From Eubacteriales bacterium (GTDB taxonomy: Bacteria > Bacillota > Clostridia > Oscillospirales > CAG-382): a stretch of DNA of 60,634 bases. The first letter of the stretch is position 1. Each line of letters begins with the position of its first letter. The stretch covers positions 1 to 60,634 of the forward strand of contig JAZSLS010000029.1 in the NCBI GenBank assembly GCA_045535465.1. The letters run 5' to 3'. Below, piece after piece: positions 1,994 to 27,968 of this stretch. The notes beneath the pieces were generated by a model, which worked only from the letters and a program-made list of their open reading frames with translations, was not told where the DNA came from and did no database searches. The translations under genes and the position numbers were made by a program.

Positions 1994-4900
1994 TTATTCT
2001 AAGTAATCCTCTTCTTCATCAACGATATTGATTGCATCTTGGCCCTGTACAGACCAACCATCAATGCACAAACCATTGTGCAAATATGGCCTGAATGAAA
2101 CTTCTTCTATCCCGTTTGTATAACGGAATATATGATTTGTTAGATTGGAAACCGCTTCAGCAAAGGAAGATGTAACAATTCCCACTGCTTCACTTTTAGC
2201 GGTTTGGAACATTATTCTATGCCTAAACAACGATTCATCCAATTTTGTTTGTCTGAAATCGCCACAAGTATCAAACTGCATTACGAAATGATATCCCCAT
2301 CTTGGCCCATGAGTGAGAATATATTTCAAATCATTTCGTGCGTCATATACTTTAGGATTGGCCAATGCATTTGCGGTGTTTGAAGAAATTTGAACGGTAA
2401 CACTTGACTTTACAGTAGTTACATTATCTGTTGACTGACCGCCATCTACATCGAGTTCCAAAGAGGCGAGGAATGTGTTTATATCCGCTTCGCCTTCATT
2501 GCGGCTTATCGAACCATATTCTTCATAAACACTCAAATCTTTTTTGCTATTAGACTGGTTCTCTTCGGCAAGATATTGCATATCCATCATAATGGTTTCA
2601 TAATTCATTATGAATATGGTTGTATTGGCTTCGACTTTGTCTTCAATAGCTTTCTTTAACTGAGATATTCGCGTACAGATATCTTCGATTCTTGAATACG
2701 ATTGATCAAAGGAAAAATCACATTCAGTTGTAATCTGTCGATAGATAGGGTTCTTAATAGAAGTCCAACACTCAGCTCGAACATCTTGCATTTTCAACGA
2801 ACGCACCGCACTCATAATTAAAGATGAACCCGACGTTTTTTCTCTTGTGGGAGCAACAAGCAAACAGTTTTCACAGAATCCATCAACCATTTCGATAGGA
2901 TAAAGCTTTAGCATTCTTTGCGGACTTCCTATAAACATGGTAATGTTTTTTTCGTAACTATTAGCGTTTGACTTGTTTAGATGCTCTAAAATGTCATCCG
3001 TTTGTTCCTCGAAAATTTCAAATGCATTACCATCTTTTATCATCGGACGTTTATGGATATAGGATTCAAAAACAGAAGCATCATAGGTCTTTTGTGGTGT
3101 GAACGTATGGTTAATAGATTCTATTAACGGAATTTGGCTATCTGAATTTGGTATGTACAAAACGTGAGCGTTACTTAATCGATCGCCTTGATCTGTGAGA
3201 GGAATTCTTTTGAGCGCGTAATGTACGGGCAGTTGTTCCATCAATAACTCGTCTCTCTCGCTGATGGTTTTTAAATCTAATGTGCTTTTTATGTCCGCAT
3301 AATCCGCTTTCATTGCGATTCTTTGTTGGATTTGATCCTTGGCCATTTCGGTCAAACCTCTTGTACCTTCGGTAAATCCTTGGCTAGAGAAGATGAATCG
3401 CATACCCAGTTTTGCACTTTTTGCTAAAATGGTTTGTAATTTAATCCTGTAATCTTCTTTTGCTAATGTAACTGAATGGGCTAATATATTTGACATTATC
3501 GAAAACTCATCAATAACAACAAATAATTCTGGCATGTATTTTTCTTCAGGAACATCACTCAATTTTTCCCATTTGCCCATAAATTTGTTTTGACGGGATA
3601 ACATTATTTCGGTAAGACGGTCCACCAAATCATAAACCAACTCGGGGGATTCGTCCAAAATAATATATCTTATATGGGGTATATTCTTGTTGACATATCG
3701 GCTAAATTCTGTTTTACCAAAATCCACAAGCCAAATTTCAACATTATCGGGATGAGTGGATTGTAAAATGCCTGTAATAATTGTGTGTATCAATGTTGAT
3801 TTACCGGAACGTGATGCACCGCAAATATAAGTGGCGAAATTTGAGTTTTCAAAGTCAAGATAAAGAATATTCCCATTGCTATCAAGACCATACGGAATAT
3901 TATCTAATTTTCTAATACCCTTTTTATGGCGTGTAGCTAACTCGAGACCAACTCTATTCAAGTAATTATTATTTAAATCGATAACAGATTTTTCGTTTAT
4001 ATATATCCGCTCAATATCGGCCGGCAAATTTGATGGTGCTAAATACCATGTAAATGCATGCGCTTTATCATTCTTGATAGAAAGATAAAAATCGTTATCG
4101 CTTTCAACGGTGATGTTAGTAGCGATATTTTTAATGAATTGATATATATCCGAATCAACTTGTCTATTTGCAGATTGATTATGTGTTAAAATTACAACGA
4201 TTCCATAATATTCTGCATTTGCACACAATTGTTGTATTAAATTGACTGAAGTTGAATCATATGCCTGGGGAAAATCGTGAAAGACAAAAACCTGCTTTTT
4301 GCCTTTGCTTTCACTTTTACTCACAGTGGCAACAATAGACTTGAGTTTTTTTCTAATTCCTTCTTCGGAATTAGGAACAGTATCTATTATTGAGTCATCT
4401 CCGCACAACTGGGACAAACAACCGAGCGAACTGGAATTAAATCGTATTGGGTCGATAAAAGCAATCTGAGTGAGATCTTGCCCGTAATGACGCAGATTGT
4501 TTAAAAGAATATTCTGTATTCCTTTTAACACATTTGCTTCTGACGAATTAGTATATTCAGCAAGTATAACCAATCCATCATTAACAATGATGTTTGCGGG
4601 TATTGATATTGTGGATTTTACAGCATTACACACTCCTTTGGTCTTATCAACAAATTTGGTTTCCATTCCTTTGGGAATTGGCAAAGGTAGTTCAACAGAT
4701 CCAATTGAAATGGTTCCGGTTTGTTCCGAGGATATGGACACTTTTTCCGTTTTCCCACCAAAAACATTTTGGTCGTTCAATACAAGATCTATAAATGACG
4801 AAAAGGATATGGAAAATAAATAGTTTTCTACTTCCGCCTTAGTGATCGAAATTTGGCTTTCGATAACGGAAGTCATCCTGTTGAATTCATTGGACAAATT

Positions 4901-5308
4901 CGCAATATGCATATCACTTGCTCTTGTTAACGAATCAACAGCAGATCTTAAATAAATAAGCTGCGCTGTTGCCTCAGCATACAGTTGAACAGCGTATGGA
5001 TCGTTAGATAAACCACTATTAATTTGAACAGAAAGGCGTGACAGGATACCGCTATCAAAAGGTTTTGCACTACTTGCATTCGTGTGAATTGAAGAATGTG
5101 TTCTAGCTATTTCAATAAAAGCATTGACTTTTGCTATGTGACGTTTGTTTTCTGCTAAATCATCTGCAAGTTTTTGCTTGGCATTAGCAATATCGTCAGA
5201 AAGTTTAGCCTTGTTTATTTCAACTTGTTGATATAGCGAAACGAGCCTTTGATTTAAAGTCTCAAGATCGGAATATATTTTATCGTATTTTTTTAACAAT
5301 GTGTCCAT
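1994..5308 (-). CDS. FtsK/SpoIIIE-family multi-domain ATPase (EssC/EccC-like) lacking recognisable TM or FHA regions
   Basis: 1104 aa. Intact Walker A CGASRSGKST (about nt 3800-3830) and Walker B-like ELFVVIDEFS. Flanked by two degenerate P-loop-like domains (QVFVFHDF..IVVILTHNQ upstream; LLVAPTREKTSGSS..TTIFIMNYE downstream). N-terminal ~150 aa are coiled coil. No hydrophobic stretch of TM length was seen. Confidence 0.8.
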   Translation of the reverse strand: MDTLLKKYDKIYSDLETLNQRLVSLYQQVEINKAKLSDDIANAKQKLADDLAENKRHIAKVNAFIEIARTHSSIHTNASSAKPFDSGILSRLSVQINSGLSNDPYAVQLYAEATAQLIYLRSAVDSLTRASDMHIANLSNEFNRMTSVIESQISITKAEVENYLFSISFSSFIDLVLNDQNVFGGKTEKVSISSEQTGTISIGSVELPLPIPKGMETKFVDKTKGVCNAVKSTISIPANIIVNDGLVILAEYTNSSEANVLKGIQNILLNNLRHYGQDLTQIAFIDPIRFNSSSLGCLSQLCGDDSIIDTVPNSEEGIRKKLKSIVATVSKSESKGKKQVFVFHDFPQAYDSTSVNLIQQLCANAEYYGIVVILTHNQSANRQVDSDIYQFIKNIATNITVESDNDFYLSIKNDKAHAFTWYLAPSNLPADIERIYINEKSVIDLNNNYLNRVGLELATRHKKGIRKLDNIPYGLDSNGNILYLDFENSNFATYICGASRSGKSTLIHTIITGILQSTHPDNVEIWLVDFGKTEFSRYVNKNIPHIRYIILDESPELVYDLVDRLTEIMLSRQNKFMGKWEKLSDVPEEKYMPELFVVIDEFSIMSNILAHSVTLAKEDYRIKLQTILAKSAKLGMRFIFSSQGFTEGTRGLTEMAKDQIQQRIAMKADYADIKSTLDLKTISERDELLMEQLPVHYALKRIPLTDQGDRLSNAHVLYIPNSDSQIPLIESINHTFTPQKTYDASVFESYIHKRPMIKDGNAFEIFEEQTDDILEHLNKSNANSYEKNITMFIGSPQRMLKLYPIEMVDGFCENCLLVAPTREKTSGSSLIMSAVRSLKMQDVRAECWTSIKNPIYRQITTECDFSFDQSYSRIEDICTRISQLKKAIEDKVEANTTIFIMNYETIMMDMQYLAEENQSNSKKDLSVYEEYGSISRNEGEADINTFLASLELDVDGGQSTDNVTTVKSSVTVQISSNTANALANPKVYDARNDLKYILTHGPRWGYHFVMQFDTCGDFRQTKLDESLFRHRIMFQTAKSEAVGIVTSSFAEAVSNLTNHIFRYTNGIEEVSFRPYLHNGLCIDGWSVQGQDAINIVDEEEDYLE

Positions 5309-8356: not shown

Positions 8357-8492
8357 TATGCGTATCAATGGTTGACATTTACAGGGCGAAGGCGTCAGTT
8401 AGACCACCGAGACGGGCGGTGTTTTTTATTGACTTTTTTCTATAAAGAGCGATATAATTTTATTGCGTAAAAAATTAAATATTTTGGAAAAA

Positions 8493-8523
8493 TTTTTGGA
8501 CGTTTTGCGATTTTTGGATATTA
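8493..8523 (+). promoter_or_regulatory. Promoter-like element TTTTTGGAC-N16-ATATTA (copy 1, upstream of the sigma gene)
   Basis: TTTTTGGAC at 8493-8501 and ATATTA at 8518-8523 with a T-rich 16-nt spacer. The same 9-mer/16/6-mer recurs at 9140-9170. Confidence 0.4.
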
Positions 8524-8587
8524 TGTAGCGAGTGGTAAGATATTTGATGCTTTTGCGTACTCTACAATTACGGAACGGAGGCAGGCT

Positions 8588-9136
8588 GTGAAAAAGGAAA
8601 AAATAAATAGTAGCCCTTTGACGGATAGCCAAAGAGCCTTTGTAGAAAACCTTATCAGAGAAAACCAAGGTGCGATTTATTACATAATCAAAGCTGTACT
8701 GGGTGAGGTGTACGGGTATCTGCTAGACGATAGCGTGGGAAAACTGTATCTCCTTACCTGTGAAAAAATTAAGATAGTGGAAAACCACCCGTGTCCGAAG
8801 GCGTGGGTGCTTGTTGCAGCAAGGGTAACCGCCCTTTATATGATTAAAAACAACAGAAAAGACCTTGATGCCGTTCCCCTTGAGCGTGCGCCCGTGACCG
8901 AGGTTGACACCACTTACGAGGAAGCCTTGTTTGGAATATGGCTTGAGAACGATGTGCCCCAAAAGCTGCTTAACACGCTTACTAAAAGAGAAACGCAAAT
9001 TTATTACAAGCTGTACGTGGAAAACAAAGGCACCGAAACCGTGGCGGCAGAGCTTGGCTTAAAAGTCAGCACGGTAAGAAGCTTTAAACAACTGATTAAA
9101 GATAAACTGCGTGAACACGTAAACAAAAAGATATAA
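8588..9136 (+). CDS. Divergent sigma-70-family (ECF-like) sigma factor
   Basis: 182 aa, GTG start with GGAGG 6 nt upstream. C-terminal region-4 HTH LTKRETQIYYKLYVENKGTETVAAELGLKVSTVRSFKQLIKDKL. Region 2 is divergent. Confidence 0.7.
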   Translation: MKKEKINSSPLTDSQRAFVENLIRENQGAIYYIIKAVLGEVYGYLLDDSVGKLYLLTCEKIKIVENHPCPKAWVLVAARVTALYMIKNNRKDLDAVPLERAPVTEVDTTYEEALFGIWLENDVPQKLLNTLTKRETQIYYKLYVENKGTETVAAELGLKVSTVRSFKQLIKDKLREHVNKKI

Positions 9137-9139
9137 AAC

Positions 9140-9170
9140 TTTTTGGACATTTTTGGCTTTTGGGATATTA
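9140..9170 (+). promoter_or_regulatory. Promoter-like element TTTTTGGAC-N16-ATATTA (copy 2, upstream of the anti-sigma-like gene)
   Basis: TTTTTGGAC at 9140-9148 and ATATTA at 9165-9170, with identical spacing to copy 1. Confidence 0.4.
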
Positions 9171-9189
9171 ACAGACGAGGAGGGATAAA

Positions 9190-10425
9190 ATGAGCGTAAT
9201 TAAAACCGACAATTTCACAGCCGAGGAGCTTAAGACTATGTTCTGCGAAGGCGATATTGCTACCTCCGACCTTGACAGGGTGGCTTTATATAAGCTTATC
9301 GACTATGAAGTGGAGCGCCTTTGCTTTGGTGACGGCGATATAGAGCTTATAGAAGAATGCGCCGCACTTCTCGAAGCTATGGACCAGGGCGCAGACGTAG
9401 AAAGCGTATTTGTAAAAGCGGCGGATAACTGTTTGCCTAAGGTAAAAACAAAGCGTTTGCTTGTAAAACGTGCATTTATAATAGCGGCAGCGGTAGCTAC
9501 TCTCGTAATAGTCAGCACTGTAGTTGCATCTGCCCTTGGCTTTAATTTGTTTGACCATATAAGCAGAACGGTATTACAACCTGACGGAACCGTGCGGGAG
9601 GAGGGCGGCATTACCTTTTACAATGCAGGCGAACACAAGGAATATTTGAGCCTGAAGGAAGCAGTAGAAAAGGAAAACTTAAATATTATGTATCCTGCAT
9701 CCTTGCCTGAGGGGGTTATGGTTAAAGAAGTGCGAGTGGCCGATAGTCAAATAGGTGACAAGCGCATATATGTTTTCACCGATAACGACGACATAATTAT
9801 AACTGTTGATACAGGCGTTGCGCCTACGCAGGGAGCAACCGAAAACCAAGAGCCTTACACAAAAAACGGCGTTGACTACCTCATTTATGAAAGCACAACG
9901 GAGCATAAGTACGGTGCTTACTGCAACTCGGGTAATTGCGATTACATAATACAGGCAAAAAAATACGAGGACTTGATTTATATAATCGAAAACCTTGTTA
10001 ACCCTCAAGGCGCCACAAGCTTCGATAACAGCAATTACACTCCCTGCGCCCTTATTATCAACGGCAAGGATATAAGCGAGGATAATTATGTTGCTATGCA
10101 CGTTGAGAAAAAACAAGCCGCCTTGCCACTATTGGCAACACTTCGCGAGCTGGGTGCGGATATACAAGACGTAAGCGACACCGTAAAAAATGTTTCTTAC
10201 CAAAGCAAGACCTACGTTTTGGATATGGAAGGGTGTGCTTTAACCAACACAGACGGTAATAACGTGTTGTTGGTTGATGGCGGAGACTATTTTGTTTACG
10301 AAAAAGACGGCGAGCTTATAGTGATAGATTCCGTGCTTAGCTATGTATTCTATGATATGGGTATCAACTGTAGAATTACAATTGACAGAGAATCCTCTGC
10401 GGTAGTGATTGCACCGAACAGTTGA
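9190..10425 (+). CDS. Single-pass membrane protein, anti-sigma-factor-like (DUF4367-like ectodomain)
   Basis: 411 aa. Cytoplasmic ~95 aa, TM AFIIAAAVATLVIVSTVVASALGF, extracellular part with the YPASLPEGV motif I associate with DUF4367 anti-sigma-linked domains. Immediately follows the sigma gene. Paralog at 18474..19325. Confidence 0.55.
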   Translation: MSVIKTDNFTAEELKTMFCEGDIATSDLDRVALYKLIDYEVERLCFGDGDIELIEECAALLEAMDQGADVESVFVKAADNCLPKVKTKRLLVKRAFIIAAAVATLVIVSTVVASALGFNLFDHISRTVLQPDGTVREEGGITFYNAGEHKEYLSLKEAVEKENLNIMYPASLPEGVMVKEVRVADSQIGDKRIYVFTDNDDIIITVDTGVAPTQGATENQEPYTKNGVDYLIYESTTEHKYGAYCNSGNCDYIIQAKKYEDLIYIIENLVNPQGATSFDNSNYTPCALIINGKDISEDNYVAMHVEKKQAALPLLATLRELGADIQDVSDTVKNVSYQSKTYVLDMEGCALTNTDGNNVLLVDGGDYFVYEKDGELIVIDSVLSYVFYDMGINCRITIDRESSAVVIAPNS

Positions 10426-10442
10426 TTAAAGGAGGGGTGACT

Positions 10443-12545
10443 ATGAAAAAAATAATTAGCATTTTAGTTTTATTGGCTATGACGATAAGTATGCTATCAA
10501 TCGGCGGCTTTACCGTTTCAGCGGCAGACGGCACTTGGGGCTATCTTAAGTGGAGCTACGAGGACGGAACTCTTACCATAAGCGGAGAGGGCGAGATGGA
10601 TGACTTTGAGTGGAATTCCGATAAAGCGTGGCATACTTGGAACTGCAAAAAGGACGTTACTACAGTTATAATTGAAGGCGGCGTAAGCAACGTTTCCGAG
10701 TTTGCTTTTGCGGGATTCCCTAAATTAACAAGCGTTACCGTTATGGAGGGCGTTAAAAGCTTTGACAGACGGGCGTTTTATAGAAGCACTGCGTTGAAAA
10801 GTGTTAGCATACCGAACAGCGTGCAAAACCTCGAAGCGGCAGTGTTTTACGACTGCGCTTCCTTGGAAAGTGCAATTATTCCGAGTGGCGTTACAAAAAT
10901 AGATTTGTACACCTTTTACGGTTGTACATCGTTAAAAACCGTAGATATCCCCGAAACGGTTAAAGAAATTGAAGGCGGTTGCTTTGAAAACTGCGCTTCT
11001 TTGGAAAGCGTAGTTATCCCCGACGGCGTTACTGTGATTTGGGACTCGTTCAGAGGTTGCAGCTCTTTGAAAAGCGTTTCCGTTCCCGACAGCGTTACTG
11101 AAATAAGCTGGTACGCTTTTATGGATTGTACTTCCTTGGAGGATATAAGTATTTCCGAAAACGTTGTAAGCGTCAGAGGTGGTGCATTTACCAACACGAA
11201 ATACTATAATACCGAAAGTAATTGGGAAAACGGCGTTTTGTATCTCGACGGTTGGTTGATAGGCTCCTCTTCCGATGCTTTGGGTGATATTGTAATTAAG
11301 GATGGTACCAAGGGCATTATTGACGGTGCTTTTATGGGCCGTACCGCTGTGGAAAGTATTACTATACCCGAAAGTGTGGCCTTTTTGGGGATGAACATAT
11401 TTGAAGGCTGCAAAGGCTTAAAAAGCGCAACCATAAACAGCAAATGCGGCTATATTAATTACGGCACGTTTCAAAATTGTATAGCTTTGACAGACGTTAA
11501 TCTGCCCGACAATCTGGAAATAATAGACGAATATGTTTTTGCCGGTTGTTCTTCGCTGGAAGGCATAACTATTCCCGATGGCGTTAAGCGTATAGATTAC
11601 GATGCTTTTCAAAAATGTTACGCATTAACAAGCATTACTATACCGGACAGTGTGACTACGCTTGGAGGTACGGTGTTTAGTGAATGCACTTCGTTAACGA
11701 ATGTAAACATCGGCACGGGCGTTAAGGAGATTCCCGGAAACGCATTTAGGGGCTGTACAGCTTTGAAAACTATCACCATACCCGAAAACGTAACGAGTAT
11801 AGGCTGGTACGCCTTTGTTAATTGCACCTCTTTGGAAAACGTTAATATTCCTGCAGGAGTTAAAAATATATCTCTACACGCTTTTGACGGTTGCACTTCC
11901 TTGAATACGGCAATTATGCCTGAGGGCATTACCGAAATTGAGGAGTTTGCATATAACGAGTGCAATTCTTTAACTACTGTTACCATCCCTCAAACCGTCA
12001 AAAGTATAGGCAACGGTGCCTTTAACGGTTGTGATGCAATGGAAACTGTATATTACGGTGGCAGCGAAGCGGAATGGAAGGCTCTTTCTATCGGAACCGA
12101 TAACGATGCGCTTCTCGGTGCAAACGTGGTTTATAATTGTTCTGTAGAGGTGGGCGACGTAAACGGCGACGGGTATGTAGACAATATAGATGCTGTATTT
12201 GTGCTTAAATACGATGCAGGTATTATAGATAGAGTAGATGTTGCAGTTGCCGACGTAAACGGCGACGGTAAAGCTGATAACCTCGATGCGGTTATGATAC
12301 TTAAATACGATGCAGGCCTTGTAGACGGCTTTTGCCCCGTTTTGGGCCATAAAACGGCTGTAAAAAGCGTTTACGTTACAACTCATAAGGTAAGAGACAG
12401 CATCCCCAGATGTGTTGTGTGTACCTATGACGTTACCTATTGCGAGCGCTGCGGTGAGATAAAGGAACAGCTTCTTATTGCTACAACCGATATCAATTGT
12501 TGTGCGGCGGAGTCCCCTTCCGCTGCAACGGAGCTAAGCGACTAA
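10443..12545 (+). CDS. Secreted BspA-like leucine-rich-repeat protein with tandem dockerin repeats and a C-terminal 6-Cys module
   Basis: ATG at 10443 (aaaggagggg RBS) gives the signal peptide MKKIISILVLLAMTISMLSIGGFTVSA. More than 15 repeats of the F..C.SL.SV.IP..V..I pattern. Dockerin GDVNGDGYVDNIDAVFVLKYDAG / ADVNGDGKADNLDAVMILKYDAG (about 12150-12330), then a Cys-rich tail (12327-12545). Confidence 0.85.
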   Translation: MKKIISILVLLAMTISMLSIGGFTVSAADGTWGYLKWSYEDGTLTISGEGEMDDFEWNSDKAWHTWNCKKDVTTVIIEGGVSNVSEFAFAGFPKLTSVTVMEGVKSFDRRAFYRSTALKSVSIPNSVQNLEAAVFYDCASLESAIIPSGVTKIDLYTFYGCTSLKTVDIPETVKEIEGGCFENCASLESVVIPDGVTVIWDSFRGCSSLKSVSVPDSVTEISWYAFMDCTSLEDISISENVVSVRGGAFTNTKYYNTESNWENGVLYLDGWLIGSSSDALGDIVIKDGTKGIIDGAFMGRTAVESITIPESVAFLGMNIFEGCKGLKSATINSKCGYINYGTFQNCIALTDVNLPDNLEIIDEYVFAGCSSLEGITIPDGVKRIDYDAFQKCYALTSITIPDSVTTLGGTVFSECTSLTNVNIGTGVKEIPGNAFRGCTALKTITIPENVTSIGWYAFVNCTSLENVNIPAGVKNISLHAFDGCTSLNTAIMPEGITEIEEFAYNECNSLTTVTIPQTVKSIGNGAFNGCDAMETVYYGGSEAEWKALSIGTDNDALLGANVVYNCSVEVGDVNGDGYVDNIDAVFVLKYDAGIIDRVDVAVADVNGDGKADNLDAVMILKYDAGLVDGFCPVLGHKTAVKSVYVTTHKVRDSIPRCVVCTYDVTYCERCGEIKEQLLIATTDINCCAAESPSAATELSD

Positions 12546-16204: not shown

Positions 16205-16304
16205 GCTTGAAAATTTTTTCAAAAAACGTGGGGAAAACAAAGCTTTTAATTGTATAATAAGTAGAAGGGCAAAACAATACGGACCCTGGCAAGGAGGGTA
16301 TGTG

Positions 16305-16850
16305 ATGGATAACGGTGCAAGTAGCTACCGCCGTTTTCTGGATGGCGACGAAGCCGCCTTTGACGAAATAGTAAAGGAGCTTTTGCGCAGTCTTACTTTT
16401 TTTATTAACGGCTACGTTCGTGATATACACACAGCCGAGGATATTGCTATGGACGTTTTTGCGGAGCTTATAGCCCATAAGCACAGGTACAATTTTAAGG
16501 TTAGCCTTAAAACCTATCTTTTTACTTTGGGCAGAAGCCGTGCCCTTAACTACGTAAAACGCCGAAACAAGCTTAGCTTTGTGGAGCTGACGGAGGCAAA
16601 CGGTATAGAGGACAGGGAGCTGGAGGAAACAGTCCTTGCCGAGGAAAAAAAGCGTGTTGTTAACACCGCCATAGCCAAGCTTCCCGAAAATATGAGAGAG
16701 GTTATCCACTTAGTTTATTTTGAAGAGATGACATATGAAGAAGCATCAAGAGTAATGAAAATCAAACGCAAAAAGGTGGACTACCTTTTACAAAGGGCAA
16801 AAAAGGAGCTTATTGACATTTTAGGAGAGGAAGGGAAAGAACTGTTATGA
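16305..16850 (+). CDS. ECF-type RNA polymerase sigma factor
   Basis: Canonical region 2 (AEDIAMDVFAELI, TYLFTLGRSRALNYVKRR) and region 4 (REVIHLVYFEEMTYEEASRVMKIKRKKVDYLLQRAKKEL). ATG at 16305 lies 7 nt after GGAGG (the track GTG at 16302 is also possible). Confidence 0.85.
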   Translation: MDNGASSYRRFLDGDEAAFDEIVKELLRSLTFFINGYVRDIHTAEDIAMDVFAELIAHKHRYNFKVSLKTYLFTLGRSRALNYVKRRNKLSFVELTEANGIEDRELEETVLAEEKKRVVNTAIAKLPENMREVIHLVYFEEMTYEEASRVMKIKRKKVDYLLQRAKKELIDILGEEGKELL

Positions 16851-18043
16851 AAGAACTAAACAAATGTATAGAAGAAATAAAAAAGCTTGGAGATAAAAAA
16901 ATAAAAGCAAGAAGAAAAAGAATTACCATAGCCTTGGTGTCAACCTTTGCGGTTATAGCTTTGGCAATCCCCGTAACGCTTGGGCTTGCAGGCTCCGCAC
17001 CCCAAAACGCACCCTCTGACATAAGCTTGGTGTTGGATAACGAAAGCTTTGAAGACGGCAGCACTGCCGAGGATAATAAGGAAAAGCCCGAGGCAAGCCT
17101 GCCCGATGCCGATGAAAGCAGCATATCGATTGAGCCAAGCCAAGAGCCCGAGCCAAGCCCTCCTGAGACCAACGATAGCAGCGAAGCACCCGAGGAAAGC
17201 GAGCAGCCGACGCCTATCCCCCCCGATGACGGTGGTGAAGACGTAAGCAAGGCGCCCGAGGAATACAAAAAGCCCGACCCAAGCTGGCCTATTGTTTTTG
17301 TTGGAAAATACGACCCTTCAAATATGAAGGAAAGCGCAAGCTATTATTTTATTACTCCGGGTATGGTGGTAATAGACACTATGGTTCGCACAGAGAAGAA
17401 TATTAACAGCATAGACGATTTAGAGGACGGGGTTTTGTATCCTGTTAAATTCCACGCTATGGTTTACGAGTCCGAGGAGTTTAAAGCAGGGCTTTACAGC
17501 ATAAGAGAAGAAAGCATTGCTGCACGGTTGGAGGTAAGGAAAACCATAATAGATTTTATTGCAAAGTACGCAGAAGCGGAAAACCATTCTCTGCTTGAGT
17601 ATTATAAGGGCTATTATGATTACTATACGATTTGTGGTTTTATCTATAACCAATTATCTCCCGAATTTTGGCCGGGGCAAAACGCACCCGAGTTTGAAGA
17701 AATAACCTCTATGACCGAACGACAGGTTTGGGATGAATACCATTTAAAGGAGATGGAATATACCAAACAGGCGGTGGCAAGTGCGGAGGCAGTGATGTAT
17801 GAGCAGCTTGAAAAACAGGGCATAAGCTTTTATGACAAGACCTTGTACTATGAGCACTTAGGCGAGATAGTTAAAGAGGAAATTTTACGTGTTGCCTTTT
17901 TGTCCAAGGGGCAGATTGCGGCTTTGACTGCGGGAGAAGACTATGGCCTTTTGGTGGAGATAGTGTGCGATGAGCTGGCAAAAAAGGATAACGAGCCCGT
18001 TTATCTTCCCGCTTGCATCGTTCTTGAGGATCAATGCGATTAA
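16847..18043 (+). CDS. Single-pass membrane protein co-translated with the ECF sigma (putative anti-sigma/sensor)
   Basis: ATGA overlap with the sigma stop. Short cytoplasmic N-terminus, TM ITIALVSTFAVIALAIPVTLGLAG, long E/P/S-rich linker (about 17040-17280), then a ~260-aa globular ectodomain. No zinc-finger anti-sigma motif was seen. Confidence 0.55.
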   Translation: MKELNKCIEEIKKLGDKKIKARRKRITIALVSTFAVIALAIPVTLGLAGSAPQNAPSDISLVLDNESFEDGSTAEDNKEKPEASLPDADESSISIEPSQEPEPSPPETNDSSEAPEESEQPTPIPPDDGGEDVSKAPEEYKKPDPSWPIVFVGKYDPSNMKESASYYFITPGMVVIDTMVRTEKNINSIDDLEDGVLYPVKFHAMVYESEEFKAGLYSIREESIAARLEVRKTIIDFIAKYAEAENHSLLEYYKGYYDYYTICGFIYNQLSPEFWPGQNAPEFEEITSMTERQVWDEYHLKEMEYTKQAVASAEAVMYEQLEKQGISFYDKTLYYEHLGEIVKEEILRVAFLSKGQIAALTAGEDYGLLVEIVCDELAKKDNEPVYLPACIVLEDQCD

Positions 18044-18112: not shown

Positions 18113-18302
18113 TTATATTAAAAGAGGCCCTTAATAGCGCAAATTGCCTTAATAATTGTTGTTTTTTGTATTTACATACAGATTAATTTGTGGTAGAATA
18201 AAAGGACGTATTGGCGTGGACGTTTTAAAATACTATGCTTTGCCTTTTTGCTTAAACGTAGGGTTGAGTTAGAGGGCTTTTGTTGAAAAGTTGTCTCCAT
18301 AA

Positions 18303-18419
18303 AACAAAAAAGGGGAAAAAATCACAGCGGAAAAGCTTGGTTTAACGCCCGAAACGGTCATAAATTTTAAAAAATTGATAAAAAATAAAATTTTGGAGCA
18401 AATTAATAAAAAAAATTAA
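18303..18419 (+). pseudogene. Truncated remnant of a sigma-factor gene (region 4 only), paralogous to 8588..9136
   Basis: Translation NKKGEKITAEKLGLTPETVINFKKLIKNKILEQINKKN* aligns with ENKGTETVAAELGLKVSTVRSFKQLIKDKLREHVNKKI* at the end of the 8588..9136 ORF. An in-frame TAA sits at 18300-18302 and there is no upstream ORF. Confidence 0.55.
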
Positions 18420-18473
18420 AAAATTTTTTTGTGTTTTTCGTTTTTATGACATTGTATAAGTGAGGTGAGAAAA

Positions 18474-19325
18474 ATGAAAAATAATATGCTTGAAAAATTT
18501 ACAGCTAGCGAGATTAAATCTATGCTTGACTCCGGTCAGGTTTCCTTGCAAGAACTGGACACCGAAACGGTGGGAGCGCTTATGGATTACGAAACAGATA
18601 GGCTTTGCGAGGGGGAAGGAGACGTTGACTTTATAAGTAAATGTGCGGATATTATCTGTGAAAAAGAAAATAGTATGATGTCCCACGAGGAATTTATGTC
18701 AATTGTTGACAAGACCACTGCCAAGTATTCTGCGCCTGCCAAAAAGCGTTTTAGCTTAAAGCGTGCTTTGGTAATAGCGGCATCTGTTGCTACGCTTATA
18801 ATCGGCGGTACCGTTGTTGCCTCTGCCTTTGGGTTTAATATGTATGACCTTATTGCTAAGGTTATATTGCAACCCGAGGGTACGGAGTTTGATAAAGACG
18901 GCTTTACTTTTTGCAATGCCGGCAAATACAAAACGTATCAAACTTTAAAAGAAGCATTTGAAAAAGAAAATTTAAATATTATGTATCCTGCGTCCTTGCC
19001 TGAAGGGGTTGCTATTAAAAAGGTAACCGTAGCCAATAGCCAAAGAGGTGATAAACGTATAAGTATATTCACCCACAACAACGATGTAATGTTTTCATTT
19101 GACATAGGTGTTATACGCAACGATGAAATGTTTGAAGACAAAGAGCTTTACACCGCAAAGAACGGTGTTAGCTATATTTTTTACGAATGCCCTGCGGATT
19201 TTGGTTACAAATACGGTGCTTTTACTAACGTTAATAATTGTGAGTATACTGTACAAACTCAAAAATACCAAGATTTAATTTATATTATAGAAAATATGGA
19301 GGATAATAATGAAAAGAATAATTAG
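18474..19325 (+). CDS. Anti-sigma-factor-like single-pass membrane protein, shorter paralog of 9190..10425
   Basis: Shares with 9190..10425 the blocks D(Y/Y)E(V/T)(E/D)RLC.G.GD, the TM, VLQP(D/E)GT, FYNAG/FCNAG, KENLNIMYPASLPEGV and YEDLIYIIEN/YQDLIYIIEN. ATG at 18474 with a gaggtga RBS is preferred over the track GTG at 18465. Confidence 0.6.
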   Translation: MKNNMLEKFTASEIKSMLDSGQVSLQELDTETVGALMDYETDRLCEGEGDVDFISKCADIICEKENSMMSHEEFMSIVDKTTAKYSAPAKKRFSLKRALVIAASVATLIIGGTVVASAFGFNMYDLIAKVILQPEGTEFDKDGFTFCNAGKYKTYQTLKEAFEKENLNIMYPASLPEGVAIKKVTVANSQRGDKRISIFTHNNDVMFSFDIGVIRNDEMFEDKELYTAKNGVSYIFYECPADFGYKYGAFTNVNNCEYTVQTQKYQDLIYIIENMEDNNEKNN

Positions 19326-19713
19326 TGCTTTAATGTGCCTTGTTTTGCTTTGCGTGGCGGCTTCTTCTGTTTCTGCCGCAGGTGATAACGGCGTTTACCG
19401 TTACGAAATAGACGGTGTTGAATACACCGTTACCTTTGAGGATGACGGCCTTTCTTCCGATGCGGAGGAAGCAATTGCAGAGAGCCTTGTAGGTTTAAGG
19501 GATGACTCTGCACATACCTACGGCTTGGGATGCATTCTTTTCGGCCACGACTGGGCTGTAAGACAAGCATACGTTACTCAGCATAAGGCGAGAGCAACCG
19601 AGCCCAGATGTATTATGCGCACCTATGACGTTACTTATTGCGAGGACTGTGACGAGATAAAGGAACGACTTCTTGTTAGCTCCGTATACATCAGCTGTTG
19701 TCCTAAGGACTAA
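19309..19713 (+). CDS. Small secreted protein consisting of a signal peptide, a short domain and the conserved 6-Cys module
   Basis: 134 aa. Signal peptide MKRIISALMCLVLLCVAASSVSAAG. C-terminus GCILFGHDWAVRQAYVTQHKARATEPRCIMRTYDVTYCEDCDEIKERLLVSSVYISCC is homologous to the tail of 10443..12545. GGAGGA RBS; overlaps the upstream ORF by 17 nt. Confidence 0.65.
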   Translation: MKRIISALMCLVLLCVAASSVSAAGDNGVYRYEIDGVEYTVTFEDDGLSSDAEEAIAESLVGLRDDSAHTYGLGCILFGHDWAVRQAYVTQHKARATEPRCIMRTYDVTYCEDCDEIKERLLVSSVYISCCPKD

Positions 19714-19845
19714 TTAGAACTAAATAATTAAAGGATACTATGAAGTTTAAGGCTGCTTTTTATTTAGCTTCTTAAGGCGGTATGGAAAAACGCTTTGCGG
19801 TTTGTTCAGGCACAAAATTTTCAGTTTTACCACCCGTTTAAACAC

Positions 19846-19931: not shown

Positions 19932-20957
19932 TTATAACGCTTTTGAAATTTCCACAAGTTGTTTGCGTGAGGAGACCCCAAGCTTTCCGTAAATGTTTTT
20001 GTTATGAAACTTAAGGGTGTTTTCGGTAATGCCAAGCAGCCCCATTATTTCTTTTGTGGATTTACCCTCCAAGTACGCATCGTATATAATTTTTTCGGTC
20101 TTCGTAAGCTCTGCAAGCCCCAGCCTGTATATCTGTAAGCCTTCCTTGCTTACTGCAACGTTTGCCGCAGCAGCCTGCGGCGGATTAAAGCTGATTGCTT
20201 GTTCTTTAAGCTTGTTATGCTCTGCAATAAGCATATTAAGCCCCAGTAAAAACAGCTCGCTTATTATGTAGGAAACCGAAAGCACCTCAAAATCAATGCT
20301 TACAAGCTGTTCGATAAACCACAGGCCTATATTGACAAAAACAGCTATGGTAAGTATAACCGTATACCCCATACTTTCCGCTTTCTTTTTTTTGTATGCG
20401 TAAACAATGGCGCAGACCATAGCGGAAAAATAACCTACAAGGTATACCAAATAAAGGCTGTGTAGCGGCCCGTAGACCTTTTCAAGTGTAGAAAAGCCGT
20501 TAACCGTTATCAGATGCACCTCTTTGTAATAAATGCCAAGGTATCCGGGGCTTGCGGCGACCAAAAACACAAGGCCGCTGATTCCTAAAAGCAGTAAAAC
20601 AACCCAACGCTTGCACTTAACCTTTATGGTGTTTAGCGTTATCATAAACATAGACAACGGAAGAAAAACCGAGCCAAGGTAAGCAACCCTGTTGGCAACA
20701 AGCGCTATGCTTAGCGTCTCGGAAACGGAAAGCCACAGGTAGCCAAAGTTAACCACCAAAACCGAGGAGAAAAGCAGCATATACCATATATCCTTCTTAT
20801 GCGATGAAAAACAGTACACTGCCAGCACCGCAACAGCCAGTATGGCTGTAACCGCATACACTATGGACAGGTTAGCCGTTTTGTCAACAACGCCGCAACC
20901 GGAAAGCATAAATACAAGCGGTAACAGCAACAAGTAACCTAAGCACTGCTTTTTCAT
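19932..20957 (-). CDS. Polytopic membrane protein with C-terminal LuxR-type HTH (membrane-bound regulator)
   Basis: C-terminus LTKTEKIIYDAYLEGKSTKEIMGLLGITENTLKFHNKNIYGKLGVSSRKQLVEI is a LuxR/GerE HTH. About 7 hydrophobic helices precede it. The start is moved to ATG 20957 (MKKQCLGYLLLLPLVFMLSGCG, AAGGAGG RBS) instead of the track start at 21134. Confidence 0.75.
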   Translation of the reverse strand: MKKQCLGYLLLLPLVFMLSGCGVVDKTANLSIVYAVTAILAVAVLAVYCFSSHKKDIWYMLLFSSVLVVNFGYLWLSVSETLSIALVANRVAYLGSVFLPLSMFMITLNTIKVKCKRWVVLLLLGISGLVFLVAASPGYLGIYYKEVHLITVNGFSTLEKVYGPLHSLYLVYLVGYFSAMVCAIVYAYKKKKAESMGYTVILTIAVFVNIGLWFIEQLVSIDFEVLSVSYIISELFLLGLNMLIAEHNKLKEQAISFNPPQAAAANVAVSKEGLQIYRLGLAELTKTEKIIYDAYLEGKSTKEIMGLLGITENTLKFHNKNIYGKLGVSSRKQLVEISKAL

Positions 20958-21334
20958 ACACTGCCTCCTTTCGGAAAAGATATCATTCCCCACACTAAAA
21001 CCTACACCAAAAACAATACGCACCACACCGAAAACAGAGAAAAGTGTGGTGACAAAGGGGTGGATAAGGTGTAAAATCATCCTAGATAGTAATACTATGA
21101 TGTATAATGTAGCATATTTTTGCAATTTTGTCAATAGCGGTGTAAAAGGAGTAAAGCTAAGAAAAATACATTTTTTAATTCAACAAAAGTTTTGCAAATA
21201 ATTGTTGTCTTGATTATGTGCATTTCAATGCTTTCGTCTTTGTTTGTAACGCATTCATTTGCATCAGAACAGTATTCTGACAACGTAGTGGAGGTGTATA
21301 TTCACACCGTGCATACGATAGTCAACTGGCAGCG

Positions 21335-23494
21335 TTGCGCATAGCAGGCTCTACCGATTATTATGATTGCGGTGTGTATCAGTATACGGGCAATAAGATT
21401 TCTACCGTTATATTTGATGGCGGCAGCTATACACTTACAGCCAAGACGGAAAAATTCGGCAGCGGTACACGTTCCAGAGAAAACTACTACCGTGGCTGTG
21501 TTATTGCCGACTACGTAAAGGCGGAAATACACGATGGCACCTTTACCGCAAAAAGTGAAGGCGTGGTTACTCAGTACGATATGTGTGCGAGAGAGCTTTC
21601 CGCATTTGCAACCTGCTGCTCCAGCACCCTTAATCCTGCCGGAAGAGACAGAAATAACCCTATGGTATACGGTGGCAAGTTTATCTCCGACGGTTATTCT
21701 CTGCACCATTTCGATACCTCGTCTACCCCCGACGAAACAAGATATATGGAAACACCTGCGATACTGGGCGGTGCGTTTTTCGGCCCCATAAGCTATATAG
21801 GCGCAACCTTTACGTATAATAGCGACGGTAATGACGAATACGAGGATATGAGCGCAAGCGAGATATTATACGGCAAAGCGTATTATCTTACAAGCGGCGG
21901 AAAATTAAAGGACGTAAGCGAGCTTACGCTTAAGGAATTGCACAAGTGCAAAACAGTGTATGCGGTAAGCAAAGAAACCTTCAATCTGGAAACAACTCCT
22001 TCTTACTATTACGATTACACGACAGTGGAGCCCAATCAGTCAGACACCTTCCGCATAAAGTACAAAACCCCCGAAAGTATGAAGGGGGTCCTGACAGTAC
22101 AGCCCTTTATAAGCCATTGTGCGGTAGATGTGGCAACTCAGGAAACAGGTGAGGAAACCAAGGTGTACAGCACCTACCACACCGTTAACTACGCAAATTA
22201 CACAGGTGGGGTAATGATAAAGGCAGGTCTGGAGGTCATATTTGGCGATGTGACCGTGGTCTTGGCAGACTCAAACCGTGTAAAGGTAAGCAATGACCGC
22301 CACCACGCAGAGATTGTTGTACAGCCTGCAAGCTGCCGTGTTGCACCCGGTGAAACGGCGGCAGCTACAGTTGTTGCCAACTATGCGCTGTCGTACCAAT
22401 GGCAGGTGCAGATAAGCGGTGGCTGGGTAAACATAACCGACACGTTATCGGCAAGTCTTGCGGAGGGCGGCTTGATATTGGAAGGGTATAAGGACAACAT
22501 CTTTGCCGTTACCGATACTAAAGGCGCTGTAGGAAGCATCAAAGCACGTTGCGTGATCACAAGCACTGCCTATTCTACCGTCACAAGTGACGTTGCTACT
22601 TTAACCTTTGGCGATAAGCCTATTATTGATAACTACTACGGCGGTAGCTTTAAAGAAGGTGGCGATGCTGTTTTCTACCTTTGGGGCTATTATTTTGAAA
22701 ACATTACCTGGACGGTAAGCAGTCGCTTGGGCAGCTTTAAGCTATACACTCTTGATGAGTTTGCTGCAGAAAAGGGCATAAACTACGAATTATCCTTCCT
22801 AAAGTTTAGCGATGATATTTACAGGGCAACCGTTACCTTTAAAAATGTGCCCGCAAGCGTGGCAAATACCTATAAGCTTGGCTATTCCGTTAAAAACGCT
22901 CTCGGTACCGTAGCCTACAGCGAGGATAATGCCATTCCCTTCAGCCTTGAGGTAGTAAAACCCACCATAACCTCCTTTATAAAAAGCGTTAGCGGTTATG
23001 ATGGGGACGACCTGAGCTTAAGCTTCGGTGCCGAGAATATGACCGAGGCAGATTGGCGCTTTGAAGCCACAGACAAGGACGGCTTAGTACAGGTATTCAG
23101 CCTTGAGGATATGAAAAGGGAATTTCCCGAAAGCACCTTTGAGGTAAAAACCGAGAGTAACACCTCTACCCTCACTGTAACCAACGCAAAAGAGGGGCTT
23201 AACGAATATGCCCTTTACGCTTATGCAGTGGGTGATAACGCTACAGCAAACGCAGGCAGTGCAAGCTTTAGGATAAAGGCCAAGGATGGCATTATCAGCA
23301 TTGGCGATGTTAATGCCGACAGTTATGTTGATAACCTTGATGCGGCAATGCTGCTTAAGTACGATGCCGGCATTATAGATATTAATGATACACAATCCCT
23401 TGCTGCTGATGTAAACGGTGACGGTTATGTGGATAATCTTGATGCCTCTATGATACTGAAATACGATGCAGGTATTATAACTGACTTTAATTAA
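21335..23494 (+). CDS. Dockerin-bearing surface protein, paralog of 28022..30673, apparently 5'-disrupted
   Basis: C-terminal GDVNADSYVDNLDAAMLLKYDAG / ADVNGDGYVDNLDASMILKYDAG. Collinear similarity to 28022..30673 (FDGGSYTL/IDGGNYTL, YQWQV Ig-like unit, VTFKNVPAS.. block). The track start is a TTG with no signal peptide. A signal-peptide ORF lies upstream in another frame (21216-21344). Confidence 0.65.
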   Translation: MRIAGSTDYYDCGVYQYTGNKISTVIFDGGSYTLTAKTEKFGSGTRSRENYYRGCVIADYVKAEIHDGTFTAKSEGVVTQYDMCARELSAFATCCSSTLNPAGRDRNNPMVYGGKFISDGYSLHHFDTSSTPDETRYMETPAILGGAFFGPISYIGATFTYNSDGNDEYEDMSASEILYGKAYYLTSGGKLKDVSELTLKELHKCKTVYAVSKETFNLETTPSYYYDYTTVEPNQSDTFRIKYKTPESMKGVLTVQPFISHCAVDVATQETGEETKVYSTYHTVNYANYTGGVMIKAGLEVIFGDVTVVLADSNRVKVSNDRHHAEIVVQPASCRVAPGETAAATVVANYALSYQWQVQISGGWVNITDTLSASLAEGGLILEGYKDNIFAVTDTKGAVGSIKARCVITSTAYSTVTSDVATLTFGDKPIIDNYYGGSFKEGGDAVFYLWGYYFENITWTVSSRLGSFKLYTLDEFAAEKGINYELSFLKFSDDIYRATVTFKNVPASVANTYKLGYSVKNALGTVAYSEDNAIPFSLEVVKPTITSFIKSVSGYDGDDLSLSFGAENMTEADWRFEATDKDGLVQVFSLEDMKREFPESTFEVKTESNTSTLTVTNAKEGLNEYALYAYAVGDNATANAGSASFRIKAKDGIISIGDVNADSYVDNLDAAMLLKYDAGIIDINDTQSLAADVNGDGYVDNLDASMILKYDAGIITDFN

Positions 23495-26039: not shown

Positions 26040-27968
26040 ATGAAGAAGCTGTTTATACGTTTTATGTGTTTTGTGCTGGCGGCTTTGTGCGTGCCTGCGC
26101 TGAGCGCTTTTGCGGCAACAAAACCCGATAATGGAGATGTAGGTGCCGCAACAGTGACAGGAATAATCAGCGAGGTGTTTGTAAAAATTGAAGTTCCTGC
26201 CGGCGGAAGAGTTCCAAGCTTTGAAGCAACGGCTTTGACTTCAAGTATGTTGGAGTACAAAATTGCCAACTACAATTACGAGTACGATTCCGAGTATTAC
26301 CACAACTTCTATAAACACGGCATACAGTGGTACGACCTTGACAATGACCGTGCTTTGAAGGAAGGGGAAGCCTTTGTAACAGGCACCCGTTACAGGGTGG
26401 ATATAGCTATTAAGGTGAACTACGGTACGGATATTTGGGGCGTTCCTTATTACGCTTTTGCTGTAGACGTTGCAGGCTACTTAAACGGAATGACGGGTGA
26501 AGTAAAAAGCTTCAGAGGTGAAGACAAAGAACGGGTTCGTGAGCTTTCCTATACCTTCCCTCCCTGCGAGGCTGCACCTGCAGACATAGGCGGCGTTAAC
26601 CTTTGGATAGGCGAGCCGCTTGAGAACGCAACTGCTGACTTTTCTTTTACTACGAGCGACGTAGGCTACGTACCCGGCGAAGGTGAATCGTTTGCCGTAA
26701 ACGGCGTAACCTGGTACGATGCCGATACTTCAGTACCTATGGACATAACCGACACCTTCAAGGCAGGGCATCGATACACCGTAGCTATTGAGCTTAATGC
26801 GGCTTCTCCCTATATATTTGCAACCAATTCTGATGGGACAAGCAGGGTTTACGCAACTATAAACGGATACAGGGCAGAGGTTTACTGCAACGCTCAGACC
26901 GTTTCGGATATGGATACCGAGATATGGGTAAGGTACACCTTTGAAGCGTGCAATTCGCTGATAAGCACTGTGGAGGTTATGGACTTTTCTCTCCCCAAGG
27001 AGGGTAAAAAGGGCGATATAACGATGACCTCGCCCGATGACAGCATCTACACGGTGGAGGGTATCACCTGGCAGGACAGCATCTCGACCATTGCTACCTG
27101 GAACAAAAAGACAGGCTACACCTCTCAAAACGGCGTGTTTGAAAGCGGCGTTACTTATACCGTTACCGTAACTCTTGCGGCGCAGCCCGGCTATAAATTC
27201 GCTACCGATGGAGGCGGAAAGCCTGCTGTTATTGCCTCTGCCGGCGGGTTTGAGATGCAGGTTACGGAGCATTACGCTTACGCATCGGATTCCTATATAA
27301 TGGTTACGGGCAGATTTATATGTAAGCAAAGCCGTGTAAGCTATGTAAAGATTATAAACCTTGAAGAGCCTATAGCAGGCAAACACCCTGACTACACTGC
27401 AACATCCGTTGGCGTAGGATACCGCATAGAAACCGAGAGAGAGGCAAAGGACGTTGATTATAGTAACGGTCAGTACGTTGACCGTTACTACAAATACGGT
27501 GGCGTTGCTTGGTACGACCTTACGGAAGGCAGATATATCTATGCGGACGAAACCTTTATAGAGGGGCACGTTTACACCGTGTATATCGATATAGTTGCGG
27601 ATAGCGATAACGGATATGAGTTCAAGATAGACAGCGACTCCTACAGTCAGGTAATAGCTACTGTAAATGATAATCAAGCACTGGCTGTTTCGAAAGCATC
27701 AAACGCCTTCCGGAATCAATACGTGGAATACATCGTATCCTGCCATTACGTTTATGGAGGCGGAGAAGAAGGCACCAAGGGCGACGTAAACGGTGACGGC
27801 TACGTAGACAACCTTGATGCGGCGGCAATACTTAAGTACGATGCAGGTCTAAGCGACCTTATGGACAAGCAGCTTGCAAGCGCCGACGTTAACGACGACG
27901 GTTACGTGGATAACCTTGATGCCGCAAAGATACTTAAATACGATGCAGGTATTATAGATAGTCTTTAA
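26040..27968 (+). CDS. Secreted dockerin protein with four ~100-aa W-Y-D/..NG.. repeat modules
   Basis: Signal peptide MKKLFIRFMCFVLAALCVPALSAFA. Repeats contain GIQWYDL, GVTWYDA, GITWQDS and GVAWYDL. C-terminal GDVNGDGYVDNLDAAAILKYDAG / ADVNDDGYVDNLDAAKILKYDAG. Confidence 0.8.
   Translation: MKKLFIRFMCFVLAALCVPALSAFAATKPDNGDVGAATVTGIISEVFVKIEVPAGGRVPSFEATALTSSMLEYKIANYNYEYDSEYYHNFYKHGIQWYDLDNDRALKEGEAFVTGTRYRVDIAIKVNYGTDIWGVPYYAFAVDVAGYLNGMTGEVKSFRGEDKERVRELSYTFPPCEAAPADIGGVNLWIGEPLENATADFSFTTSDVGYVPGEGESFAVNGVTWYDADTSVPMDITDTFKAGHRYTVAIELNAASPYIFATNSDGTSRVYATINGYRAEVYCNAQTVSDMDTEIWVRYTFEACNSLISTVEVMDFSLPKEGKKGDITMTSPDDSIYTVEGITWQDSISTIATWNKKTGYTSQNGVFESGVTYTVTVTLAAQPGYKFATDGGGKPAVIASAGGFEMQVTEHYAYASDSYIMVTGRFICKQSRVSYVKIINLEEPIAGKHPDYTATSVGVGYRIETEREAKDVDYSNGQYVDRYYKYGGVAWYDLTEGRYIYADETFIEGHVYTVYIDIVADSDNGYEFKIDSDSYSQVIATVNDNQALAVSKASNAFRNQYVEYIVSCHYVYGGGEEGTKGDVNGDGYVDNLDAAAILKYDAGLSDLMDKQLASADVNDDGYVDNLDAAKILKYDAGIIDSL

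Follow-up and report, generated by a model that had tools for sequence, protein, structure and literature searches.

A predicted secreted Cys6His2 domain encoded with ECF sigma factor and anti-sigma-like genes in gut Clostridia

We analysed a stretch of 60,634 nucleotides (nt), hereafter the window, from contig JAZSLS010000029.1 of an Eubacteriales bacterium (Oscillospirales, CAG-382; assembly GCA_045535465.1). A preliminary description of this DNA, made from the sequence alone, had noticed two similar cysteine-rich protein tails, encoded at 12327-12545 and 19522-19713. Both tails are the C-termini of real open reading frames (ORFs), and the translations match exactly. The two tails share 32 identities over 57 residues (56%; BLASTP, E = 8 × 10−26), and a tblastn search of either tail against the whole window in all frames returned these two copies only. 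The first copy ends a 707-residue ORF (10422..12545) with leucine-rich repeats (LRRs) of the LRR_5 family and a Dockerin_1 domain, whereas the second ends a 134-residue ORF (19309..19713) with a signal peptide at its start. On the sequence evidence, the tails are true copies of a previously undescribed domain of about 60 residues, predicted to be secreted, with six cysteines and two histidines (Cys6His2; hereafter the module). The parts of the two proteins are as follows:

10443..12152, + strand: signal peptide and BspA-type LRR region of the long (fusion) protein, with five LRR_5 stretches (E = 1.4 × 10−155)
12153..12308, + strand: type I dockerin of the fusion protein, residues 578-629 of the 707-residue ORF (Dockerin_1, 36.3 bits against a cut-off of 22.9)
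12327..12545, + strand: module copy 1, whose core runs to the C-C at 12503 and is followed by 13 further residues and the stop codon; matches the family profile
19309..19521, + strand: signal peptide (residues 1-23, cleavage after VSA) and N-terminal beta-hairpin and helix part of the small secreted protein; overlaps the stop codon of the preceding gene, anti2, by 17 nt
19522..19713, + strand: module copy 2, the stand-alone form, stop codon included

The fusion protein likely starts at the ATG at 10443 (MKKIISIL, with GGAGG ahead) rather than at the listed TTG at 10422. Its dockerin is of type I, with a score above the Pfam cut-off and two 'DVNGDG' repeats visible in the translation. Another dockerin protein in the window (21335..23494) stops nine residues past its dockerin; thus, the module in 10422..12545 is an addition.

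To estimate the extent of the module family, 1.84 billion cluster representatives were searched exhaustively with a profile, and 361 of them matched at E ≤ 1 × 10−3 and 179 at E ≤ 1 × 10−10. A word-indexed protein search returned ten and then three relatives, the ten all being 115-128 residues long. It badly under-counted the family, and any judgement of rarity based on it alone would have been badly wrong. Absence of the module outside this genome, which the preliminary description had named as a result that would speak against its proposal, is not what was found: with 361 representatives, the module is conserved well beyond it. Almost all of the best 150 of the 361 are 120-145 residues long with the module at the extreme C-terminus, and only one of these 150 (P0016, 705 residues) is an LRR-dockerin-module fusion, with the same architecture as that of the window. 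The stand-alone secreted protein of about 130 residues is therefore the normal form and the post-dockerin fusion a rare derivative; the mini-protein that had been pointed out earlier is in fact how the module usually occurs. The window proteins were scanned against Pfam, NCBIfam, PHROGs and PADLOC, and no family above threshold was obtained for the module or for the anti-sigma-like proteins described below. Family members likewise had no match reaching threshold in Pfam or NCBIfam, in agreement with the earlier remark that the module was not recognised, and no description of this domain or of its operon was found in the literature that could be searched or in curated libraries. Genome and metagenome matches place the hosts among Oscillospiraceae, Ruminococcus and unclassified Clostridia metagenome-assembled genomes, from the guts of humans, sheep, cattle and wildlife. 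The metagenome scan used a profile from a 12-sequence subgroup of the family. Matches in sequencing runs were partial only and came from herbivore gut metagenomes, none of them RNA.

In an alignment of 150 members, the six cysteines and two histidines are essentially invariant. The invariant or nearly invariant residues, in the numbering of the small protein, are C75, G79, H80, H92, P99, R100, C101, C111, C114, C130 and C131. Of the invariants proposed from the two window copies, C-x3-GH and P-R-C thus hold across the family; the arginine of HK-x-R, most of TYDVTY, and EIKE do not. The fusion copy has an extra cysteine, in 'VVCTYD', that the family does not conserve; in the orthologue P0016 it is histidine. 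Outside the module, the alanine at the signal peptidase site (Ala23) is kept in 143 of the 150 members, and the N-terminal 45 mature residues are conserved only moderately. In one related locus (L029, 5275-5643) we observed a second, degenerate tandem module gene without P-R-C and the terminal C-C.

The small protein was modelled with AlphaFold2 from a 12-sequence alignment. The predicted local distance difference test score (pLDDT) averaged 76.6, with 85-91 at residues 30-60 and 81-94 over the module strands (residues 81-130). The elements follow in the order beta-hairpin (29-43), helix (50-60), helix (72-78) and three strands (83-91, 101-111 and 116-128). Read from the order of the strands, one end of the sheet would have C75 and H80 (just ahead of beta3) together with C111 and C114 (at the beta4-beta5 turn), and the opposite end H92, C101, C130 and C131. 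From this model we infer that the eight residues most likely form two Cys3His sites of four ligands each (C75/H80/C111/C114 and H92/C101/C130/C131), and that the bound metal is probably zinc. Among 184 sequences, the last ligand position is Cys in 170, His in 13 and Phe in one, and the CxxC spacing is two in 180 and four in the other 4. Because the last cysteine can be swapped for histidine and the Cys6His2 set is invariant, metal ligands are favoured over disulfides. The preliminary description had proposed a zinc- or disulfide-stabilised knob, and the zinc part of that proposal fits better. In zinc ribbons and knuckles, four Cys/His ligands from two knuckles at beta-hairpin turns bind one Zn. 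The CxxC of the module is predicted at the beta4-beta5 turn, and the swap at the last ligand is compatible with a metal site; the sole sequence similarity of the module in the PDB, to the zinc ribbon of eL37, was weak (E = 0.12). Foldseek searches with the small-protein model gave no usable match in the PDB (best E = 0.06, template modelling (TM) score 0.2) or among viral structures (best E = 8 × 10−3, TM score 0.31).

Alternatively, the module could be a metal-free structural knob knotted by three disulfides, which would serve secreted proteins as a stable cap for adhesion or protection; the histidines would then have another role. Six conserved cysteines in a secreted protein are a classic disulfide setting, and the 92% of members that end in C-C are compatible with three disulfides. 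The two-site geometry, moreover, was deduced from strand order and not from model coordinates, and these points must be set against the metal sites. However, the terminal cysteine is specifically histidine in 13 of the 184 sequences, a swap that a disulfide partner would not tolerate. The two histidines are also as invariant as the cysteines, and the CxxC lies at the turn of a beta-hairpin, the place that it takes in zinc knuckles. Gut anaerobes of the Oscillospiraceae and Ruminococcus type, to which the hosts belong, live in surroundings where extracellular thiols tend to remain reduced. We therefore consider a disulfide knob improbable.

The module has a remote relationship to PF07874 (DUF1660, 'prophage protein'). 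Fourteen of 145 members matched this family at E < 0.01, all of them below its gathering cut-off of 21.4 bits (window copies 16.1 and 14.3, best member 19.3, consensus 17.3), and the family consensus matched PHROG 2670 at E = 1 × 10−4. An hhalign comparison between the module profile and a set of phage DUF1660 proteins gave a probability of 96.3% (E = 1.5 × 10−9) over 29 columns. Aligned are the first Cys/His element and, beyond a 17-residue insertion that only the module has (H92 ... P-R-C101), the CxxC knuckle. Because the phage set had been gathered by the shared motif, the N-terminal part of the match is inflated, and the score should not be read at full value. What DUF1660 (PHROG 2670) and the module share is 'L-x-C-x-LFGH-x-W' and a downstream 'C-x-R-C' knuckle, which correspond to C75, H80, C111 and C114. 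The motif C-K-[LF]-F-G-H-K-W was found in more than 120 viral contigs, against a chance expectation that we estimate at below one. The phage ORFs that bear it are mostly 45-85 residues long, start with 'MKLLCKLFGHKW', have C-x-R-C 5-34 residues further on and have no signal peptide; the six that were tested are true DUF1660 members (23.6-84 bits). The DUF1660 proteins of the viral loci (L037-L156) are very uniform, and their C-x-R-C is followed by a conserved acidic tail, 'NRSDLDESENV...KWLDKHMD', which is unrelated to the module.

The two groups also differ clearly. In the phage ORFs the motif is mostly at the extreme N-terminus and there is one four-ligand set, whereas the module is C-terminal, secreted, chromosomal and tied to sigma factor operons, and its 17-residue insertion and C-terminal strand ending in C-C would add the second site. 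A scan of viral contigs for relatives yielded none that was confirmed, and tblastn of the consensus against phage genomes gave matches at chance level only (E values of 0.8-8). From these comparisons, the module is best seen as an elaborated form of the DUF1660 knuckle, secreted and with two sites; by the Pfam criterion it is not a member. The statement that the module is unrecognised therefore stands with respect to families above threshold and needs amending with respect to this remote relative. Relationship to proteins that lack signal peptides is a further argument against the disulfide knob. A literature search returned no paper mentioning DUF1660.

In the window, both module genes belong to cassettes with an extracytoplasmic function (ECF) sigma gene or its remnant and a gene for an anti-sigma-like membrane protein. 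Cassette 1 (8588-12545) is complete. The remaining features of the two cassettes are:

8429..8458, + strand: housekeeping-type promoter-like site TTGACT-18-TATAAT, 5' of cassette 1 (11/12 matches, consensus only)
8588..9136, + strand: sig1, ECF sigma factor of 182 residues (Sigma70_r4_2 match)
9190..10425, + strand: anti1, single-pass anti-sigma-like protein of 411 residues; its homologues are anti2 and, in every related locus, the product of the second gene
18171..18199, + strand: housekeeping-type promoter-like site TTTACA-17-TAGAAT with TG (extended −10), 5' of cassette 2 (10/12 matches, consensus only)
18309..18419, + strand: sigma gene remnant of cassette 2, the last ~36 codons and stop codon, 51% identical to sig1 residues 147-181 (E = 1.3 × 10−7)
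18465..19325, + strand: anti2, anti-sigma-like membrane protein (database start ATG at 18474, 283 residues)

The same gene order was found in every locus with enough sequence: an ECF sigma gene (about 180 residues), a membrane protein gene (about 260-295 residues) and the module gene. It occurs in all nine loci reached via the module in species genomes and assemblies, in every more divergent metagenome locus with sufficient upstream DNA, and at the second known fusion, P0016. When the query was anti2 and not the module, all four homologues looked up again had this order. Among about 35 loci, no module gene lay away from the sigma/anti-sigma pair. The anti-sigma stop codon and the module start codon are separated by −17 to +7 nt (22 loci). 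Across these 22 junctions (in the window, 19290-19330), the ribosome-binding site of the module gene (AAGGAG) often lies inside the DNA for the conserved '...ENMKE' tail of the anti-sigma-like protein, and the conservation of this tail may partly reflect the downstream ribosome-binding site. In most related loci, consensus matches to TTGACA/TATAAT were present 5' of the sigma gene. A shared ECF-type, autoregulatory promoter was sought in the related loci, and only housekeeping-type sites were found. Most operons, both window cassettes included, lie behind such promoter-like sites, which suggests that all three proteins are made together.

The sigma family profile matched SigW at E = 7 × 10−21 over positions 6-176, from sigma2 to sigma4, and TIGR02937 was matched by all 18 of 18 members. 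By these profile matches the partner is a true ECF sigma factor of the sigma2 + sigma4 type. The membrane protein is conserved in 24 loci. The AlphaFold2 model of anti2 has four N-terminal cytoplasmic helices, a transmembrane helix (95-119) and a beta-rich ectodomain with pLDDT of 80-93, and its best fold match was RseB (E = 2.5 × 10−3, probability 0.99, TM score 0.23). A few of the anti-sigma-like proteins had weak matches to DUF4179 or DUF4367 (DUF4179 in 3 of 21, best E = 0.002); anti1 and anti2 of the window had no DUF4179 match and no recognised anti-sigma domain model above threshold. The membrane protein is thus a putative anti-sigma factor, assigned from its position and architecture.

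Cassette 1 was compared with the locus of the other fusion (P0016, locus L157). The identities were 85% for the sigma factor, 75% for the anti-sigma core, 66% for the dockerin and 77% for the module, but only 27-35% for the LRR part. At the nucleotide level, homology was limited to 8421-10012 and 12247-12503, where the cassettes are 81-84% identical. Between 10013-12246 and positions 1720-3596 of L157 no nucleotide homology was found; this span runs from the anti1 extension through the complete LRR region into the beginning of the dockerin. On this comparison, the LRR 'payload' is swapped or hypervariable between close relatives. The anti1 protein consists of a conserved core (residues 1-275) and an extra C-terminal domain of about 136 residues, encoded from about 10013 to 10425, which is missing from the L157 orthologue. 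This extension had no family match, apart from one weak, sub-threshold match to an alpha-amylase domain C (E = 0.027). In another locus (L004, 1491-2270), a gene just upstream of the sigma gene encodes a separate protein with a signal peptide and a dockerin, and the C-terminal part of that protein is homologous to the extension.

Cassette 2 has lost its sigma gene and retained the other two. Its closest relative, L035, has an intact 182-residue sigma gene upstream and a lipoprotein gene downstream; both were lost in cassette 2, where homology to L035 is limited to 18410-19761. The ratios of nonsynonymous to synonymous substitution rates (dN/dS) against L035 were 0.24 for anti2, 0.14 for the small gene and 0.10 for its module part. 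Both genes are intact, and these values indicate purifying selection over the divergence from L035, within which selection since the deletion is not separable. The preliminary description had taken 9190..10425 and 18474..19325 for anti-sigma-like sensors, and the anti-sigma-like assignment holds for both; the sigma remnant beside the second had been overlooked. Also overlooked was that the pair directly upstream of cassette 2 (16302..18043), an ordinary ECF sigma factor with sigma2 and sigma4 matches and a 398-residue single-pass partner with a Pro/Glu/Ser-rich linker, is unrelated to the cassette family.

Only the three cassette genes recur across the loci. Genes for a lipoprotein, an XRE regulator, an ATP-binding cassette (ABC) transporter and an RHS toxin occur near them sporadically. 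The lipoprotein gene (~127 residues) adjoins the cassette in L002, L004, L006, L008, L033, L034, L035 and L036, and is directly 3' of the module gene where it is downstream. RHS/YD-repeat toxin-like genes were observed within a few kb in L004 (27-980), L005 (26-3754), L008 (8102-9052) and L033 (963-2120). In L026, the anti-sigma-like gene and the module gene are separated by an inserted three-gene ABC transporter (2320-4911).

The neighbourhoods bear on the suggestion that the module is a sorting or attachment signal, as had been proposed earlier, or that the small protein matures into a modified peptide such as a bacteriocin, a ranthipeptide or a SCIFF-like product. The module is cysteine-rich, lies at the extreme C-terminus and is part of a small protein, as such an explanation would have it. 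However, the neighbourhoods have neither a recurrent modifying enzyme, of the radical-SAM or any other kind, nor a recurrent dedicated exporter. The module is also predicted to be a folded three-stranded sheet with high pLDDT, it has no hydrophobic tail or sortase-type motif, and its protein has a normal Sec signal with a conserved cleavage-site alanine. A role as a sorting signal or precursor is thus very improbable. The SCIFF or ranthipeptide precursor was rejected, because the Sec signal is conserved and no maturase was found in any neighbourhood examined. A component of anti-phage defence was likewise rejected; the PADLOC scan gave no match above threshold for the module or the anti-sigma-like proteins.

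It is also conceivable that the sigma factor has the small protein as its dedicated output and not as part of a sensor; the protein would then be a secreted effector such as an inhibitor of a hostile enzyme, an antimicrobial or competition factor, or a metal scavenger. ECF operons often have their main effector downstream, as with oatA and sigV-rsiV, and the small protein is freely secreted with no anchor. The small lipoprotein gene just downstream in some loci could encode an immunity or partner protein, ABC transporter genes lie near the cassettes of L026, L011 and L028, and RHS-type toxin genes lie near several cassettes. However, the extra neighbours differ between loci and defence-system models were unmatched. 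It also speaks against an effector that the module gene was never found apart from the sigma/anti-sigma pair in about 35 loci, and that cassette 2 keeps the module and anti-sigma genes despite the loss of the sigma gene. An effector fused to a variable LRR-dockerin protein in the same operon slot would be hard to explain. We regard the effector explanation as unlikely, although it deserves consideration.

We tentatively favour another explanation, in which the module protein is an extracellular partner of the anti-sigma ectodomain and the third part of a signalling switch; we hold this to be possible and put it slightly short of an even chance. The strict co-occurrence of the genes, their overlap, the retention of the pair after sigma loss and the constant module beside a variable LRR part all fit a physical partnership. 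Binding to the anti-sigma ectodomain and an effect on sigma activity are what we infer from these observations. The proposal that the module could be a ligand for the neighbouring anti-sigma-like sensors is accordingly among the best-fitting of the earlier suggestions, given the universal synteny and the translational coupling. Several points weigh against this explanation. Genes that share an operon occur together even if their products never meet, so that synteny cannot tell a signalling component from a dedicated output. The RseB fold match of the ectodomain is marginal, the promoter calls are consensus matches, and transcript data were not found.

If the partnership is real, the system might work as follows. 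A Sec-exported protein of about 130 residues, with the module as its C-terminal half, would be the obligatory third product of the operon. The module would be a three-stranded beta-sheet domain held by two four-ligand metal sites. Outside the cell, this protein would bind the LolA/RseB-like ectodomain of the anti-sigma factor. The binding would set the stability of the anti-sigma factor against degradation, and hence the release of the sigma factor. In the fusion of cassette 1, the constant module might act as a 'plug' to the anti-sigma factor, and the fast-changing LRR part might give the cellulosome a variable surface for sensing or binding.

This arrangement can be compared with known systems. 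RpoE-RseA-RseB of E. coli, CnrH-CnrY-CnrX of Cupriavidus and FecI-FecR-FecA each include a third protein that attaches to the anti-sigma factor from outside and governs the release of the sigma factor. The module operon is alike in that an ECF sigma factor, a single-pass anti-sigma factor and a third exported protein are encoded together. However, neither the sequence nor the fold of the module protein is related to those of RseB, CnrX or FecA. An RseB/LolA-like fold, if present, would be in the anti-sigma ectodomain and not in the third gene product, whose model had no such match in the PDB. The hosts also differ, being Gram-positive-type Clostridia without a periplasm. The operon would be a three-component ECF unit, and what is new in it is the third component, the previously undescribed Cys6His2 domain.

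The SigV/RsiV and SigP/RsiP pairs of Bacillus are likewise ECF pairs of Firmicutes, with a single-pass anti-sigma factor that has a DUF4179-like region. RsiV senses lysozyme directly, and no dedicated secreted partner is known to be encoded downstream of it. Anti-sigma factors with DUF4179 are almost exclusive to Firmicutes (PMC7826278). In the module operons, DUF4179 matches are weak and are absent from anti1 and anti2, and a gene for a putative secreted partner is present. The SigI/RsgI regulators of cellulosomes are similar in being alternative sigma/anti-sigma pairs with an extracellular sensing moiety in dockerin-bearing, fibre-associated Clostridia. However, the sigma factor of the module operon is a canonical ECF protein (sigma2 + sigma4) and not SigI-like, its anti-sigma factor has no match to RsgI_N or to a carbohydrate-binding module, and the sensing moiety, if any, would be on a separate protein.

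A more specific version of the partnership is that the module serves as an extracellular zinc-thiolate switch. In these strict anaerobes, the two Cys3His sites would lose their metal or be oxidised when oxidants are present or metal is short; the protein would then unfold and hold the anti-sigma ectodomain differently. We consider this rather unlikely. If it were true, the operon would be an extracellular counterpart of the cytoplasmic zinc anti-sigma redox switch of the RsrA type, or of the CnrX metal sensor, and the fusion would couple a hypervariable LRR protein of the cellulosome surface to gene expression.

Several other genes in the window were observed. A predicted Ser/Thr protein kinase (33296-35593; Pkinase, E = 7 × 10−23) has BspA-type LRR_5 repeats at residues ~498-602, so that LRRs again occur on a signalling protein. 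Further dockerin-encoding segments are 21335-23494 and the nucleotide matches at 23302-23479, 27882-27956, 30587-30660 and 32095-32170; the organism appears, from these segments, to make many dockerin-bearing proteins. On the − strand lie a 7TM-LuxR membrane regulator (19932-21134; HisKA_7TM and GerE) and an 811-residue protein that matches a phage receptor-binding beta-propeller domain (35936-38371).

ECF sigma factors are the largest class of signal-transducing sigma factors in bacteria, and the input signal is unknown for most groups, notably in gut Clostridia. The three genes described here form a compact unit whose invariant, experimentally tractable extracellular component has a mature length of about 110 residues and eight candidate metal ligands, and which gives direct access to the question of what such systems sense. 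For DUF1660, a widespread phage family without known function, the module would be the first cellular context for its fold. The dockerin-LRR fusion with its swapped LRR part suggests a route from binding proteins displayed on the cell surface or the cellulosome to transcription.

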